Assembly: GCA_011048615.1 (NCBI GenBank)
Contig: DSDT01000399.1
Coordinates: 1-48,624 of the forward strand
Length of the DNA stretch: 48,624 bases
DNA from: Chloroflexota bacterium
GTDB lineage: Bacteria; Chloroflexota; Anaerolineae; B4-G1
Direction: 5' to 3'
Shown here: one piece after another, positions 44,036 to 48,624 of the stretch
Layout of the letters: the number at the start of each line of letters is the position of its first letter
Position numbering within the stretch: position 1 is the stretch's first letter
The notes under the pieces: model-generated
Told to the model about the DNA's origin: nothing
Databases searched by the model: none
The model's input: only the letters and a program-made list of their open reading frames with translations
Position numbers and translations under genes: made by a program

Positions 44036-45655
44036 ATGAACACGGATTCGCAGTCTGCGCCGTATCAGGTCTGCATCACACGACGAGAGATGGGATGGGT
44101 CGCTCTGGTGAGCGTGACGCTGCTGGCGGTGACCAGCCTCCCTTACCTGGTGGGTTGGTGGATGGACGCGCACGACGCCGCCCACGTATTCGGCGGGTTC
44201 ATCTATGCCGTGGAGGACGGCAACTCGTACCTGGCCAAGATGCAGGTCGGCGCGGCGGGGCATTGGTTGTTCTACCTGGCCTACACCCCGGAGCCACACC
44301 AGGGGGAGCTTTTTTTCCTCTACTACATTCTGCTGGGTAAACTGAGCCGGCTGCTGGGCCTCTCGATGCTGACTGGGCTGCACCTGAGCCGTATCCTGAC
44401 CGTGCCGTTTGGCCTCTTTTGTTACTACCGCTTTATCGCGTACTGGACCTTCGACTGCGCGGTGCGCCGCTGGGGACTGGCACTGTTCGCGTTCACAGCC
44501 GGTTTGGGGTGGCTGTGGGTGGTCCTGGGGGGCGGTTCGACGTTGGGGGCCATGCCGGTCGATCTGTGGGTGCCGGACGCCTCCTACTTTTTCTCGGCCC
44601 TCTTGTTTCCTCACCTGCCCCTGGCTCAGGGACTGCTGCTTTGGTTCGTGACGGACGCCCTCGAGTTCCTCGCGGTCGGTCGTGTCCGTTCGGGCGCGAT
44701 GGCCGCCCTGGTAGGACTTTTGGTCAGCCTGATTCACCCCTACACGCTGCCGGTGATTGGTGTCGTGGTGGGGCTGTTCGCCGCCTGGCAGGTCCTGCGC
44801 CGCCGGTGGCTGTTCTGGCCGACGGTGGGCCGGCTGGCGGCGGCGATGGCGCCGACGATCCCCTACCTGGCCTACAATGGGTTCGTCTTTTGGAACAATC
44901 CGGCTTTCCAGTCTTGGCGCGAGCAGAGCCAGACCGTCTCACCGGCTCCGGTACACTACCTGTTGGGGCTGGGATTTATCCTGATATGGGCCGTGGTCGG
45001 GATAGCGCGCCGGCGAACGTGCGAGGGACGGCCTCTCGATTTCTTGATCGTCTGGGCGGCGGCAGTGCCGATCCTGATCTATCTGCCCAGCTCGATCCAG
45101 CGCCGCTTCCTGGACGGGTATCAGGCCCCCTTGACCGTATTGGCCGCCTGCGGTTTGCGGAGCGTGTTCTCTGATCTGCGCCGTCCCCAGGTCCGGCGAT
45201 TGGCGCCGGGCCTGGTCGTGGGGTTGATGATGTTGACCAACCTGCTGCTGATCGTGGGGGCGCTGGCGGTGCTCCCGGGGCGGGACGAGCCGCTCTTTCG
45301 CCCGGGCGCGGAACAGGCGGCGGCGGATTGGCTGGCCCGGCGTGCTCAAGGCGAGGTCGTGTTGAGCGGTTACGAGAGCGGCAACTATTTGCCGACCCGA
45401 GGGGCGATGCGTGTCTTTCTTGGTCACAGGCCAGAGACGATGCGCTCGGCGGAGAAGCGAGACCTGGTCGCGAGTTTCTTTTCCGGGGAGACGGACGATG
45501 CCTGGCGGCAGCGACTGCTCGCCAAGTACGACGTGCGCTGGGTGTGGTGGGGGCCGTGGGAGCGGGCGTTAGGCCCGTTCGATCCGGGGACGTGCGAGTA
45601 CCTCGACCCTGCCTACGACGTCGGCGGGTACGCCGTTTTCGAGGTGGTGCGGTGA
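44036..45655 (+). CDS. Large polytopic membrane protein, family 'A' (paralogue 2)
   Basis: ATG 44036 lies 1 nt after the upstream stop. TSLPYLVGW...DGNSYLAKM...GHWLFYLAYTPEPH...YYILLGK and a C-terminal VWWGPWERALGPFDP...YAVFEV. Confidence 0.6.
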   Translation: MNTDSQSAPYQVCITRREMGWVALVSVTLLAVTSLPYLVGWWMDAHDAAHVFGGFIYAVEDGNSYLAKMQVGAAGHWLFYLAYTPEPHQGELFFLYYILLGKLSRLLGLSMLTGLHLSRILTVPFGLFCYYRFIAYWTFDCAVRRWGLALFAFTAGLGWLWVVLGGGSTLGAMPVDLWVPDASYFFSALLFPHLPLAQGLLLWFVTDALEFLAVGRVRSGAMAALVGLLVSLIHPYTLPVIGVVVGLFAAWQVLRRRWLFWPTVGRLAAAMAPTIPYLAYNGFVFWNNPAFQSWREQSQTVSPAPVHYLLGLGFILIWAVVGIARRRTCEGRPLDFLIVWAAAVPILIYLPSSIQRRFLDGYQAPLTVLAACGLRSVFSDLRRPQVRRLAPGLVVGLMMLTNLLLIVGALAVLPGRDEPLFRPGAEQAAADWLARRAQGEVVLSGYESGNYLPTRGAMRVFLGHRPETMRSAEKRDLVASFFSGETDDAWRQRLLAKYDVRWVWWGPWERALGPFDPGTCEYLDPAYDVGGYAVFEVVR

Positions 45656-47262
45656 CAGGGTCGCCGGCGGCCCATCCGACGGTCACGCGGCGCGAGTGGC
45701 GCTGGGCGGCGCTAATGTCCCTGGCAACGCTGGTGGTCGTCAGCCTGCCCTACCTGGTGGGCTGGGTCGTGCAGACGCCGGAGCGGGTGTTCGGCGGCTG
45801 CATCCTGCTGAGCGACGATTGTTACTCCTACCTGGCCAAGATGGCCCGGGGCGCGGCGGGGGACTGGCTGTTCCGCATGCCGTATACCCCAGAGCCGCAC
45901 ACGCCGACGCTGCTCTACCTGTTCTACTTGCTGCTGGGCAAAGTGTCCGCGCTGACAGGTCTCTCGACCGAGGCGACCTATCACCTGGCGCGGGTGGCGC
46001 TGGGATGGGGGATGATGCTGGTGGTGTACCGTTTCCTGGCGGTCTTCACACCGGCGGTCCGGGTGCGCCGCCTGGCCTGGCTGATGGTCGCCTTGGGGGG
46101 TGGGTTGGGATGGCTGCTGATCCTGCTGGGGCAGCCGAACTGGCTGGGGAGCCCGCCGCTGGACGTCTACCTGCCGGAAGGATTTGCCCTGCTGGTCTTG
46201 TATGGCTTTCCTCACTTGGCGGCCGCCCAGACGCTGCTGTTGGGGGGAATGTTGAGCCTGCTGCGGGCCTGGGAGGAATGCCGAATCGCGCGCCCTGCTG
46301 CATCCCTCTGGTGGGCCGTGCTGGCTGGTCTGGCCTGGTTCGCCATGGGCTGGATCGTCCCGTTCTACGTGGCTGTGGTGTGGGCCGTGATGGGATCTGC
46401 GTGGGTTGTGCTGGCTCTCCGGCGGCGGCGCGCGCCCTGGGGCGAGGGGGTGGGGTTGGCGGCGGCGGCTCTCCTCGCCGTGGGGCCGGTGCTGTACAGT
46501 GGATGGGTGTTCACCACCGATCCGGTGTACGCTGCCTGGGCTGCCCAGAACCTGATTCTCTCTCCCCACCCACTCCACTTTTTGGCGGCCTATGGCACAC
46601 CCCTGCTGCTGGCGGCCTTTGCCGTGCGGGTGGCCTGGCGTGACGAGGGCTGGGGTTGGCTGGCGCTGGTGTGGGTCGCAGTGGCAGCGGTGCTGGCTTA
46701 CCTGCCGTTCAACTTGCAGCGCCGATTGGTGCAGGGCGTGCAGACACCGCTCTACGCCCTGGCGGCTGGCAGCGCGGTGCGGCTGTGGCGGTCGAGGGGG
46801 CGCTGGCTGGCAGCGCTGCTGCTGGCGGCCATGCTCCCCACCACCCTCATCATCCTGGCTGGCAGCGGCGCATCGCTGCTCAACCGCCCGCGCCTCGTCT
46901 TCCGCCCGGCCGGCGAGGTCGCCGCGCTGGACTGGCTGTCTGAGCGCGTCCAACCCGACGACGTGGTGCTGGCCGCCTACGACACCGGTAACTATTTGCC
47001 GGTGCGGGTAGTGGCGCGGGTGTTCGTGGGGCATGGGTTCGAGACGATGGACGCCGAGGAGAAAGAAAGACTGGTGGCCCGATTTTTCGATCCAGAAGCC
47101 GATGACGCCTGGCGGCGTGATCTGCTGACCCGCTACGGTGTGGATTACGTCTTTTGGGGGCCGGAGGAGCGGCGGCTGGGGGCCTTCGACCCGCGCGACG
47201 CCTCGTACCTGCGGGCGGTGTACGACGCCGGTGGATACACGATTCTCGAGATCGAGCGGTGA
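45652..47262 (+). CDS. Large polytopic membrane protein, family 'A' (paralogue 3)
   Basis: GTG 45652 overlaps the upstream TGA (GTGA). VSLPYLVGW...DCYSYLAKM...GDWLFRMPYTPEPH...FYLLLGK and a C-terminal VFWGPEERRLGAFDP...YTILEI. Confidence 0.6.
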   Translation: MTGSPAAHPTVTRREWRWAALMSLATLVVVSLPYLVGWVVQTPERVFGGCILLSDDCYSYLAKMARGAAGDWLFRMPYTPEPHTPTLLYLFYLLLGKVSALTGLSTEATYHLARVALGWGMMLVVYRFLAVFTPAVRVRRLAWLMVALGGGLGWLLILLGQPNWLGSPPLDVYLPEGFALLVLYGFPHLAAAQTLLLGGMLSLLRAWEECRIARPAASLWWAVLAGLAWFAMGWIVPFYVAVVWAVMGSAWVVLALRRRRAPWGEGVGLAAAALLAVGPVLYSGWVFTTDPVYAAWAAQNLILSPHPLHFLAAYGTPLLLAAFAVRVAWRDEGWGWLALVWVAVAAVLAYLPFNLQRRLVQGVQTPLYALAAGSAVRLWRSRGRWLAALLLAAMLPTTLIILAGSGASLLNRPRLVFRPAGEVAALDWLSERVQPDDVVLAAYDTGNYLPVRVVARVFVGHGFETMDAEEKERLVARFFDPEADDAWRRDLLTRYGVDYVFWGPEERRLGAFDPRDASYLRAVYDAGGYTILEIER

Positions 47263-47383
47263 TCAGCAATTCCCGTTATGGAGTTCGTAGTAGCGACTTT
47301 CGCTGTTTGCGCAATAGAAGCGACTAAAGTCGCCACTACGAACGTCAAATGTGTGACGGCGATGCTAAAATGGGAATTGCTGA
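47263..47383. mobile_element. 121-bp nested palindromic element with 12-bp terminal inverted repeats and a 7-bp flanking direct repeat (MITE-like)
   Basis: TIRs: TCAGCAATTCCC 47263..47274 and GGGAATTGCTGA 47372..47383 (12/12). Inner 18-bp inverted repeat: 47283..47300 with 47326..47343 (17/18). GCGGTGA sits directly outside both ends (47256..47262 and 47384..47390). Confidence 0.45.
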
Positions 47384-47389
47384 GCGGTG

Positions 47390-48624
47390 ATGAGAGGGGG
47401 CGAGGGGATGGGACGGGGCGCAGGATTCGAGAGGCGGGTTGACCGTCGAGAGTTGGAGGTGGTGGCCGGTCTGGCGTTGTTTGCCGTCATGCTGCTGTGG
47501 CGGCCCCTCTTGACCGGCGAGGTCTTTTTTTGGGGCACGCCGCTGCTCCAGTTCGTGCCCTGGCAGCGGATGGCGGCCTCGATGTGGCGCCAGGGTCACC
47601 TGCCGCTCTGGAACCCGTTGGTGGGCTGCGGTGCGCCGCTGGCGGCCAACTATCAGACGGCGGCCTTTTACCCCCTGAATCTGCTCTACCTGCTGCTGCC
47701 GGTCGCTGTGGCCCTGGTGTGGACCACGGCGCTGCACCTCCTGCTTACTGGTTGGGGGATGTACCGCTGGGGACGGGCGGTGGGTCTGGAACGGTTCCCG
47801 GCCTTGATAGGCGGATTGACCCTGGCGGGCAGCGCTTTCCTGGTGACCCGGATCGCCCTGTTCCCCAGCGTGGCGGTCACCTTTCCCTGGCTGGCCGTCT
47901 GGTTGTGGCGGGCCGAGGCATTGGCGCGGCGCTGGCGGCTGCGCGATGCCCTCGGGCTGGGCCTGGCCCTGGGGCTGGGGCTGCTGGCCGGCCACGCGCA
48001 GACTGCTTTCTACGGTGGCCTGCTATTGGCTGCCTACCTGCTCTTTCGGACGGTGCAGGAGGGACGGTATACCCTGCGCCAAACAGCATACGTCGGGCTG
48101 GCCCTGGCGGTGGGCGTGGGCCTGGCAGCGGTGCAACTGCTCCCCACAGCCGAGCTGATGGCCTCGTCGCAGCGCTCGGCCGGCGTGGAGTATGATTTCG
48201 CGATGACCTATTCGCTGTGGCCCTGGCGGCTGATCACGTTCGTCGCGCCCGGCTTTTTCGGCCATCCGGGCCGGGGCGATTACGCCGGCTATCCCAACTA
48301 TTGGGAGGGAGCGGGGTACGTGGGGCTGCTGCCGCTCCTTCTGGCGGTGGAGGCGGTGCTGAGCGGGTGTCGTGGGCAAGGGAAGCGGACCGGGGGCGGT
48401 CAGGTCTGGTTCTGGGTCGGCAGCGCGGCGGTGGCGTTGACGTTGGCGCTGGGCCGGAACACGCCGATTTTCCCGTTCCTGTTTCGCCACGTCCCGACCT
48501 TTGACTTGTTCCAGGCCCCGGCCCGCTGGCTGGCGGTCGTCACGGTGGCGCTGGCGGCGCTGGCAGGGTGGGGCGCGCAGGCCTGGCCGCGGGGCCACCG
48601 GGGACGGCGGCTGGGGGCCTGGAG
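47390..48624 (+). CDS. YfhO-family GT-C membrane protein (paralogue 2); partial, runs off the window
   Basis: Absent from the ORF track because no stop is reached. The frame is open from the stop at 47381..47383 to the window end. It reads ...LLWRPLLTGEVFFWGTPLLQFVPWQRMAASMWRQGHLPLWNPLVGCGAPLAANYQTAAFYPLNLLY.... Start is ATG 47390, or ATG 47408 (SD GAGAGGGGG). Confidence 0.65.
   Translation, partial: MRGGEGMGRGAGFERRVDRRELEVVAGLALFAVMLLWRPLLTGEVFFWGTPLLQFVPWQRMAASMWRQGHLPLWNPLVGCGAPLAANYQTAAFYPLNLLYLLLPVAVALVWTTALHLLLTGWGMYRWGRAVGLERFPALIGGLTLAGSAFLVTRIALFPSVAVTFPWLAVWLWRAEALARRWRLRDALGLGLALGLGLLAGHAQTAFYGGLLLAAYLLFRTVQEGRYTLRQTAYVGLALAVGVGLAAVQLLPTAELMASSQRSAGVEYDFAMTYSLWPWRLITFVAPGFFGHPGRGDYAGYPNYWEGAGYVGLLPLLLAVEAVLSGCRGQGKRTGGGQVWFWVGSAAVALTLALGRNTPIFPFLFRHVPTFDLFQAPARWLAVVTVALAALAGWGAQAWPRGHRGRRLGAW

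Follow-up and report, generated by a model that had tools for sequence, protein, structure and literature searches.

Among the closest described systems is Chunjie, a MITE of Geobacter uraniireducens Rf4 (Chen et al. 2008, via PMC3184786 and PMC10969869). As portrayed in those sources, Chunjie is small, palindromic and richer in A+T, and has terminal inverted repeats as well as direct repeats of 9 bp. Besides fragments there are dozens of copies, one of which lies within an operon without destroying the genes, and the predicted RNA structure is very stable. All of these traits recur in the element analyzed here. The Nezha MITE (about 130-170 bp) and ISNpu3 of Nostocales (Zhou et al. 2008, via PMC3184786 and PMC6042816) are similar in other respects: the sources mention a partner insertion sequence only in another species, 10-bp direct repeats, and filled and empty sites inferred from species comparison. 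In REP/REPIN systems (Pseudomonas, the BIMEs of E. coli), insertion leaves no target-site duplication, and the linked RAYT transposase gene has the same REP on its flanks.

The window, i.e. the whole stretch of 48,624 nucleotides that was analyzed, comes from a metagenome-assembled genome of the Anaerolineae. Near its 3′ end a palindromic element separates the gene of a polytopic membrane protein (paralogue A3) from a YfhO-like gene (Table 1). This element is very probably a MITE copy, inserted by a trans-supplied DDE transposase at an overlapping stop/start. The preliminary description had already proposed a non-autonomous transposable element, and the multiple copies, their varied duplications, the absence from orthologous junctions and the lack of a U-tract terminator all agree with that proposal.

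Structure and boundaries of the inserted element

Table 1. Features of the A3/YfhO junction (positions within the window).
Feature	Position	Strand	Remarks
Upstream gene (paralogue A3)	45652..47262	+	536-aa polytopic membrane protein, GTG start
Left target-site duplication copy	47255..47263		9 bp, AGCGGTGAT; upstream stop codon inside
MITE	47264..47382	+	119 bp, subfamily without AGT in left REP arm, 48% GC, non-coding
Left terminal inverted repeat	47264..47277	+	CAGCAATTCCCGTT; same sequence as the 1.7-kb insertion-sequence ends of G014 and G015
Left REP-like arm	47283..47304	+	GTTC-GTAG-TAGCGACTTTCGCT; 3-nt deletion relative to the 122-nt master copy damages the palindrome
Right REP-like arm	47319..47343	-	inverted; + strand AGCGACTAAAGTCGCCACTACGAAC, - strand GTTCGTAGTGGCGACTTTAGTCGCT
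Small side hairpin	47344..47357	+	GTCA-AATGTG-TGAC, in asymmetric right spacer
Right terminal inverted repeat	47369..47382	-	AATGGGAATTGCTG; 13/14 match to left repeat
Right target-site duplication copy	47383..47391		AGCGGTGAT; gives downstream GTG and first 2 bases of ATG
YfhO-like membrane protein gene	47387..48624	+	gene cut by contig end

The element was originally delimited as a 121-bp palindrome with perfect 12-bp terminal inverted repeats, flanked by the 7-bp duplication GCGGTGA. A direct repeat does abut both ends, and the inner 18-nt inverted repeat (47283-47300 with 47326-47343) is matched at 17 positions, as first reported, but comparison of the copies shifts the boundaries. T at 47263 and A at 47383 differ among copies and are thus both part of the duplication, which comprises 9 bp instead of 7 and leaves 119 bp for the element itself. 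The terminal repeats are present, but each is 14 nt long, with T 47263 and A 47383 outside, and they contain one mismatch, a private C-to-T change at 47371 in the right repeat of the junction copy. The outer inverted repeat, 47263-47277 with 47369-47383, spans 15 nt with 93% identity.

With a length of 119-122 bp (two subfamilies) and no transposase gene, the element has the short size of a MITE (less than about 600 bp). Its GC content is below that of the genome (62-64%). The only ORFs over it are two antisense overlaps on the minus strand (47145..47348 and 47345..47995).

Reconstituted stop and start codons

The upstream gene begins in a GTGA overlap with its preceding gene (45652-45655), and its TGA stop (47260-47262) falls within the left duplication copy, 1 nt before the stem. 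The in-frame start candidates of the YfhO-like gene are GTG 47387-47389, ATG 47390-47392 and ATG 47408, and the start codon lies 4 nt after the stem. Because the duplication rebuilt the upstream stop as well as the GTG/ATG start of the YfhO-like gene, neither reading frame is damaged, and the two now stand 128 nt further apart. The insertion thereby explains why an array of otherwise tightly coupled genes contains a gap of 128 nt, and it provides a clean natural case in which a 9-bp duplication restored both codons of an overlapping gene pair, the stop and the start. The ancestral coupling was initially reconstructed as a TGATG stop/start overlap. That reading is compatible with the data, but a GTGA overlap, which fits the sequence equally, appears more likely because GTGA is found at the neighbouring 45652-45655 junction and in orthologue L046.

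Orthologues of the upstream gene in Anaerolineae MAGs share 42-63% identity. The same gene pair occurs at 10 of the 11 orthologous loci in other genera, while L042 has a different downstream gene; the element is absent from all 11. At the ten pair-keeping loci the YfhO-like gene follows directly after the stop or within about 70 nt, and ATGA (L045) and GTGA (L046) overlaps occur. Empty junctions were seen between genera; within the species no empty allele was found, which counts against the MITE reading: a degenerate 35-nt pattern of the empty site gave 0 matches in metagenome contigs. An exact look-up of the upstream protein returned two independent ENA assemblies, both filled and 100% identical, so that all three assemblies (ERZ1742330, ERZ27245514 and this MAG) show the filled allele and no other.

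Distribution of the element

A search for multiple copies with different flanks and with duplications had been suggested as a check, and the 3.94-Mb genome does contain about 25-30 full copies and about 8 fragments. About 47 places match; at 19 of these, inside contigs or at their ends, the copy is full-length. There are two main subfamilies, of 122 nt and 119 nt; copies within each are 97-100% identical, which indicates recent spread. Perfect 9-bp duplications, whose sequences differ between copies, were distinguished in 15 cases: 9 at internal copies and 6 across contig joins, i.e. contig-end pairs linked through the element by a perfect 9-mer common to the flanks. Two further internal copies have duplications with one mismatch, and at three internal copies no clean duplication was found.

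All full copies carry the 14-nt CAGCAATTCCCGTT at either end (13/14 at the right end of the junction copy). The genome contains this 14-mer about 60 times. In six related genomes it was counted 7-29 times, compared with 0-2 times for a reversed-pattern control; the occurrence of the terminal repeat is far beyond chance. Four further genera of the family have full-length homologues with 9-bp duplications (76-80% identity). Many contigs start or stop exactly at the element, and since contigs end there, it accounts for assembly breaks at about two dozen places.

A solitary terminal repeat lies beside a LytTR-type regulator gene (C137), with no transposase. Two candidates for an insertion sequence with an ORF reading from the right end (C171-end/C300-start and G021 L040) were rejected, as they are non-coding composites in which a second small element is nested in the REP loop.

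Partner insertion sequence and its transposase

A 1685-bp insertion sequence with perfect ends CAGCAATTCCCGTTTTGG and the 9-bp duplication CCCCGCCAC was identified in a related genus (G014:C4; L054 1225-2909). A second one, of 1698 bp (G015:C96), has the same 14-nt ends, and inspection of its flanks revealed no duplication. Each contains one ORF (436-449 aa) with a weak match to the DDE domain PF01609, for which the transposase score was 15.7 bits (below the cut-off of 23); many homologues of this transposase carry a precomputed PF01609 match. None of the NCBIfam insertion-sequence family models reached its cut-off (best hits: IS1380, 14.5 bits, cut-off 180; IS1634, 14.2 bits, cut-off 100), so the named family stays "not classified yet".

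A homologue on plasmid pNPUN02 of Nostoc punctiforme, 33% identical and annotated as "ISNCY family transposase", belongs to an element with ends CAGCAATTCTCATC and a 10-bp duplication. ISNCY is also the RefSeq name of the cyanobacterial relatives of the transposase, and the terminus CAGCAATTC is common to the Nostoc element and the Anaerolineales elements. This connects a previously uncharacterized MITE family of uncultured Anaerolineales with a group of insertion sequences that is unclassified (ISNCY-annotated) and whose terminus is conserved from Cyanobacteria to Chloroflexota.

The MITE shares its ends with an autonomous insertion sequence in related genera, but not in its own assembly. No homologue of the transposase was found in the latter, which counts against the MITE reading, and a search with the G015 transposase revealed none in G000, G016 or G007. 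The DDE genes of the genome itself (PF01609; C215, C303 and C179) were dismissed as partners, as none is flanked by the terminal repeat.

REP-like core

The core of the element is composed of two inverted GTAG-plus-palindrome units (GTAGTNNCGACTNNAGTCG). The REP signature, GTAG-TAGCGACTTTAGTCGCT with an inverted partner, was found 68 times in this genome and 0 times with the reversed control, and 68 of the 70 motif occurrences are inside MITE copies. In eight related genomes the GTAG-palindrome doublet occurs 23-100 times, compared with 0 in reversed-pattern controls. Some doublets lack the outer repeats (L036-L038), and bare doublets also occur in other genera. The doublet is also located inside a different MITE family of a sister genus, which has ends C[CT]GGAGTCTGGCGAATTTTG and a 7-bp duplication. 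The genome encodes one RAYT-like Y1_Tnp protein, whose gene lies between REPs of a different family. The motif was found neither at the six best RAYT loci nor at 16 further ones in seven related genomes. A CRISPR-like reading of the 25-28-nt pieces was rejected because they are halves of REP doublets, arranged as inverted pairs about 37 nt apart.

It is conceivable, though rather unlikely, that the doublet is a module of its own, which at least two MITE families contain although their ends are unrelated and their duplications differ in length. If so, it would move by a second mechanism and repeatedly colonize MITEs, and thus be spread by two unrelated transposition systems; alternatively, doublet-bearing MITEs would be favoured, the hairpin aiding transposition or being useful to host RNA. 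A REP-like core common to different MITE backbones is the sole part of this case that could teach something new on how small repeats arise and spread.

Predicted RNA structure and probable mode of insertion

The predicted RNA fold of positions 47256-47390 has an energy of -60.3 kcal/mol (z = -6.2), and 0 of 200 shuffled sequences were as stable; the element alone reaches -54 kcal/mol. The initial view that this is no classical terminator holds: a terminator scan gave 0 sites, and what comes after the stem is AGCGGUGAUGAG and not a U-tract. A promoter scan likewise detected none. A search of Rfam 15 produced no match at gathering score, only chance hairpins of 13-24 bits (cut-offs 42-110).

Very probably, the 119-bp non-coding element was cut-and-pasted or copied by a DDE transposase acting in trans into a staggered 9-bp break. 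The target would have been the overlapping stop/start (…GAG CGG TGA / GTG ATG…) of the GT-C-like membrane protein gene and the YfhO-like gene. Repair of the staggered cut would have duplicated AGCGGTGAT, the left copy ending the upstream gene and the right copy starting the downstream one. A likely source of the transposase is the 1.7-kb insertion sequence of related Anaerolineales genera, which shares the 14-nt ends of the MITE and, like it, has a duplication of 9 bp.

As there is no terminator tail, the two genes are presumably still co-transcribed. Their mRNA would then carry, according to the predicted fold, a very stable hairpin directly between stop and start, and direct termination-reinitiation coupling would give way to coupling that depends, at best, on this structure. 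In that case, a ribosome that terminates at 47260-47262 could melt the outer stem and so make the start region at the 3′ foot of the stem accessible. For expression of the YfhO-like gene, the overall consequence is probably mildly polar or neutral.

Alternative explanations

The inverted GTAG-plus-palindrome units, their abundance in the eight related genomes (and absence from the reversed controls), the L036-L038 doublets and the single Y1_Tnp gene would fit a REPIN, in which a RAYT (HUH/Y1) and not a DDE transposase spreads the REP doublet and the outer inverted repeats are incidental. However, RAYT/IS200-type single-strand transposition makes no 9-bp duplication, whereas every clean copy in this genome has one together with 14-nt terminal repeats; for the junction copy this duplication largely refutes a REPIN origin. 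The near-confinement of the motif to MITE copies, the different REP family around the sole RAYT-like gene and the motif-free RAYT loci of the seven relatives argue in the same direction, and we consider such an origin highly improbable.

Two further explanations assign a role to the hairpin. It could be a native, selected regulatory RNA of the operon junction (a processing site, stabilizer or attenuator) and not an insertion at all, as its very stable fold, its position exactly between two genes of one array and its identity in three assemblies might suggest. The preliminary description had named a single copy and conservation in distant relatives as signs of such an RNA, and neither was seen: the element occupies about 30 unrelated loci with duplications of their own and is absent from the ten pair-keeping junctions of other genera. 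Given also its foreign base composition and the lack of a matching Rfam family, we regard a native RNA as extremely unlikely. It is less improbable, though still unlikely, that an inserted MITE has been co-opted, i.e. that its hairpin alters expression or transcript stability of the YfhO-like gene (for example, via RNase III or RNase E processing, or structure-gated translational coupling) and that the insertion was kept for this reason. The filled site being the only allele in the three assemblies and the closeness of both codons to the stem are consistent with co-option; fixation in a few related samples, however, is expected under neutrality, and the mutated terminal repeat of the junction copy and its damaged-palindrome subfamily fit passive decay. 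A MITE inserted by a transposase acting in trans remains our preferred explanation.

Comparison with known systems

Chunjie, to which the element is likened by description, differs according to the cited sources (PMC3184786, PMC10969869) in its size (178-235 bp), its 21-bp terminal repeats and its phylum. Here, moreover, the insertion lies precisely on an overlapping stop/start, and the core is a REP-like doublet.

On the side of the transposase, the N. punctiforme relative of the partner resembles Nezha/ISNpu3 in its 10-bp duplication and has the CAGCAATTC terminus. A possible connection of Nezha/ISNpu3 with the N. punctiforme element and with CAGCAATTCTCAT termini is a lead that rests on likeness to the published descriptions (PMC3184786, PMC6042816). 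The ISNCY-annotated elements of cyanobacterial plasmids (e.g. NC_010632, 174.9-176.4 kb) share with the Anaerolineales elements a transposase 29-33% identical over >90% of its length, a size of about 1.64 kb, the terminus CAGCAATTC and a 9-10-bp duplication, but the Anaerolineales elements diverge beyond base 9-13 of the terminal repeat.

As in REP/REPIN systems, the inner arms consist of GTAG followed by a short imperfect palindrome and form an inverted doublet that can fold into a hairpin. In contrast to those systems, the element ends in inverted repeats and is bordered by a target-site duplication (9 bp), none of the RAYT genes (own genome and 16 loci in seven relatives) shows a link to the motif or has the same REP on its flanks, and the motif occurs in this genome almost only within the MITE. 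The junction element is thus a member of an already known kind of event, with the REP-like palindrome pair in its core as the twist.

Structure and boundaries of the element

A repeat search of 47256-47390, between the gene of a 536-aa membrane protein and a YfhO-like gene, recovered the nested inverted repeats and the flanking direct repeat of the preliminary description (Table). The duplication as such was upheld, but not the 121-bp length or the 7-bp repeat assigned to it: alignment of internal copies with their flanks revealed that the first and last bases of the proposed terminal repeats vary by copy and match the opposite flank, so these were assigned to the duplication. The element proper is therefore 119 bp long (CAGCAATTCCCGTT…AACGGGAATTGCTG) and is bordered by a 9-bp target-site duplication. 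Its GC content is 48%, versus 62% for the genome. The suggested RNA folding of 47256-47390 gave -60.3 kcal/mol, far below the mean of shuffled sequences (-37.7 kcal/mol; z = -6.2), and the element by itself gave -54.3 (+ strand) and -52.4 kcal/mol (- strand).

Table. Features of the element, its variants and related loci. Single numbers refer to the window; C, contig (of the source genome G000 unless stated); L, extracted locus; G021, related genome.
Feature	Location	Details
Element proper	47264-47382	
Target-site duplication	47255-47263 and 47383-47391	9 bp, AGCGGTGAT; flank comparison across copies
Flanking direct repeat	47254 and 47382	10 identical bases, GAGCGGTGAT
Outer inverted repeat	47263-47277 with 47369-47383	15 nt, 93%
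Inner inverted repeat	47283-47300 with 47326-47343	18 nt, 17/18 matches
Private change of the window copy	47371	right terminal repeat
Truncated or variant pieces	C76, C19, C6, C11, C299, C54, C137, C123, C171/C300	C123: 196-bp variant
Orthologous junction	L045	ATGA overlap
Orthologous junction	L046	GTGA overlap
Orthologous junction	L047	ATG just before stop
Orthologous junctions	L043, L048, L050	run straight on
Orthologous junctions	others	spacer of up to ~70 nt
Composite element	L040 1233-1564 (G021:C73)	7-bp duplication ACTGAAA
Composite element	C171:8049-8171 with C300:1-122	duplication GCCCTACAC; split over two contigs
Second REP-like family	C405:2268-2900, C171:8120-8171, >20 other contigs	

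Copies in the source genome

The source genome (3.94 Mb, 425 contigs, 92% complete; the window is the entire contig C1) was searched with the element by BLAST, as had been proposed for finding multiple copies with different flanks. Matches lie in 47 separate places, approximately 17 internal to contigs and approximately 22 exactly at contig ends, which indicates that the assembler broke at this repeat. With left and right ends paired systematically, nine internal copies have perfect 9-bp (not 7-bp) duplications, all different (e.g. CTTGTCGTT, ACGCTAATG, ACTGAACCG, GGATCGGAT and TAGGGCTAG), two have a duplication with one mismatch and three lack a clean one. Six contig pairs can be joined through the element, since the 9-mer before its left end on one contig equals that after its right end on another; five left and five right ends at contig ends are unpaired. 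The total is ~25-30 full insertions.

Two main subfamilies were distinguished: a 122-nt master, represented by eight identical copies, and a 119-nt form without AGT in the left inner palindrome, which includes the window copy and its one private change. The near-identity within each of them points to a recent burst in this genome. A third, older subfamily shows ~79% identity (C95, C159). Insertion sites are mainly intergenic, often very near ORF ends; in C95, once more, the final three bases of the duplication are a stop codon, that of a 793-aa ORF. The copy at C377:1760-1899 (duplication AGCGGAGAA, flank ATTGAGCGGAGAAAGAG) resembles the window's ATCGAGCGGTGATGAGAG, which might be coincidental, or be due to a slight preference for such targets or to the end of a related gene. 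The 196-bp element at C123:4985-5180 shares the terminal repeats (CAGCAATTCCCGTT / CAGTAATTCCCGTT) but differs in its interior, which is made of other small palindromes; within a single genome the ends are therefore joined to more than one core.

The junction before insertion

Removal of the element and one copy of the duplication yields …CTC GAG ATC GAG CGG TGA TGA GAG GGG…, and at the preceding junction of this array the genes overlap by GTGA (…GTG CGG TGA CAG…, 45652-45655). The insert is absent from all 11 loci examined in other genera (42-63% protein identity); in 10 of them the upstream gene is directly followed by the YfhO-like gene, and in the remaining one, L042, another gene lies downstream. 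Homology is recognisable in the sequence around the stop, e.g. gtcgagcagTGAagagatcgg in L046 versus the reconstructed atcgagcggTGAtgagaggggg. Judged from the reconstruction, the neighbouring overlap and the insert-free loci, the element has inserted into a stop/start that once overlapped or abutted. Both genes are undamaged because the 9-bp duplication spans the stop and start signals.

Within the species, the empty site sought at this junction was not found: a degenerate 35-nt pattern gave no matches in JGI metagenome contigs, and in two independent ENA assemblies whose upstream protein is identical the site is filled, with identical sequence. The window contig and both ENA assemblies stop within ~25 nt of one point in the YfhO-like gene. 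The terminal stretch (48425-48624) shows weak similarity only (81-84% over 37-58 nt) to two other contigs, and a paralogue, or variation among strains, is the probable cause of the break in all three assemblies.

Homologues and the partner insertion sequence

The genes on either side of the element group the organism with uncultured Anaerolineae/Anaerolineales (Chloroflexota) MAGs. Among 40 related genomes, full-length homologues (122 nt, 76-80% identity) were identified in four further genera of this family, with 9-bp duplications of their own (L032, CTGCCAGAT; L035, ATGCAGTGG; L034, with one mismatch). The homologous copy in L033 (G016:C329, ~1501-1622) lies between direct repeats of 13-15 nt, (T[GA])CAAATACAGGCTT, not 9 bp.

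When all occurrences of the 14-nt ends in six related genomes were listed, one inverted pair 1.7 kb apart was found (G015:C96:3101-4798), enclosing a single ORF of 436-471 aa. A 65%-identical copy of its product in G014:C4 is encoded by a 1685-bp element whose ends (CAGCAATTCCCGTTTTGG) and 9-bp duplication (CCCCGCCAC) are both perfect, and an 85%-identical fragment in G011 is located at the start of a contig beginning CAGCAAATCCCGTT. By its sequence, the product is a divergent DDE transposase. Its match to PF01609 is below the cut-off (E = 0.013), and no NCBIfam insertion-sequence family model came near its own. At least 8,000 metagenomic proteins match it at E ≤ 1e-5; the best listed are ~393-481 aa long, many with a precomputed PF01609 hit and most on contigs of ~1.6-2 kb. 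The translation also contains Y-W-K-I-E-N-E-T-F-N-T-L-K, a stretch that looks typical of the third catalytic region of IS4-superfamily enzymes.

A tblastn search of plasmids revealed relatives of 29-48% identity, those in Nostoc punctiforme, Gloeothece and Acaryochloris being annotated as 'ISNCY family transposase'. Plasmid pNPUN02 of N. punctiforme PCC 73102 (NC_010632; L105 492-2132) carries a 1.64-kb element (transposase 33% identical) with ends CAGCAATTCTCATCATGAGAATG and a 10-bp duplication, CCCAACTCAG. Across phyla, this group of insertion sequences therefore shares the terminus CAGCAATTC and a duplication of 9-10 bp. The pNPUN02 element may belong to the ISNpu3 group, said to mobilise the Nezha MITE. 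No transposase homologue was found in the source assembly, nor in the MITE-rich genomes G016 and G007. Either the transposase gene dropped out during binning or assembly, or the transposase behind the burst has since been lost.

The REP-like core

Each inner arm consists of GTAG plus a short palindrome (GTAG-T-AGCGACT-TT-AGTCGCT), and the two arms are inverted, as in REP doublets (REPINs). Of the 70 occurrences of CGACTnnAGTCG in the source genome, 68 fall within copies of the MITE. The pattern GTAGTNNCGACTNNAGTCG occurs 23-100 times in each of eight related genomes, one from another family (reversed control pattern, 0), and some of these doublets appear bare (L036-L038). In genome G008 (L089-L104, e.g. 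C36:20908-21163) the same doublet lies within a different MITE-like element of ~180 bp, with ends C[CT]GGAGTCTGGCGAATTTTG…CAAAATCGCCAGTGTCCAG and 7-bp duplications (GAGTGTA, TTGTCTA, TTCCTGA). One and the same core is thus found on MITE backbones that necessarily depend on different transposases. Composites were also observed, in which a CAGCAATTCTCATT-type MITE holds, in the loop of its left REP palindrome, a second small element (~230 bp) that is bounded by inverted ends of its own (GTGAATTTTGA… / …TCAAAATTCAT).

The motif is absent beside the single Y1_Tnp gene of the source genome (C405), at the six best RAYT loci and at 16 further RAYT loci in seven relatives. Despite its REP-like core, the element does not belong to the REP/REPIN class by mechanism, given the target-site duplications and the lack of a RAYT link at these loci. 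The C405 gene is followed by a different REP-like family, GTAGCC-GGGGCACTTTATGCCCCGG, often beside GCCCGATAAATCGGGC-type palindromes. Located directly 3′ of the genome's only Y1_Tnp gene, this repeat and that RAYT-like gene form a candidate cognate REP/RAYT pair.

Proposed effect on transcript and translation

Terminator, promoter and Rfam scans detected no U-tract, sigma-70-like promoter or Rfam match at the element, in agreement with the earlier view that it is not a classical terminator; read-through transcription would therefore be expected by default. The stop codon ends 1 nt ahead of the stem, a GTG and an ATG lie 4 and 7 nt past it, and a further in-frame ATG is present at 47408. In the predicted fold, the first two starts would be poorly accessible to free ribosomes. 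A ribosome terminating at 47260-47262 would have had to open the outer stem, transiently exposing the 3′ foot of the hairpin, and for this reason some coupling may survive, now structure-dependent. Processing by double-strand- or single-strand-specific RNases is equally possible.

Classification and relation to known systems

The copies, their duplications and the partner insertion sequence in relatives bear out the original reading of a non-autonomous transposable element, with corrected boundaries. The element has the sequence-level characteristics of a bacterial MITE, and we regard it as a new family of MITEs, from a phylum that has been little studied; its partner insertion-sequence group is identified but unclassified. 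According to reviews, the lack of the transposase from the host assembly has a counterpart in Nezha and ISNpu3 (PMC3184786). The element resembles Chunjie in its 9-bp direct repeats and operon insertion, and Nezha in that the partner insertion sequence sits in another species (PMC3184786, PMC10969869).
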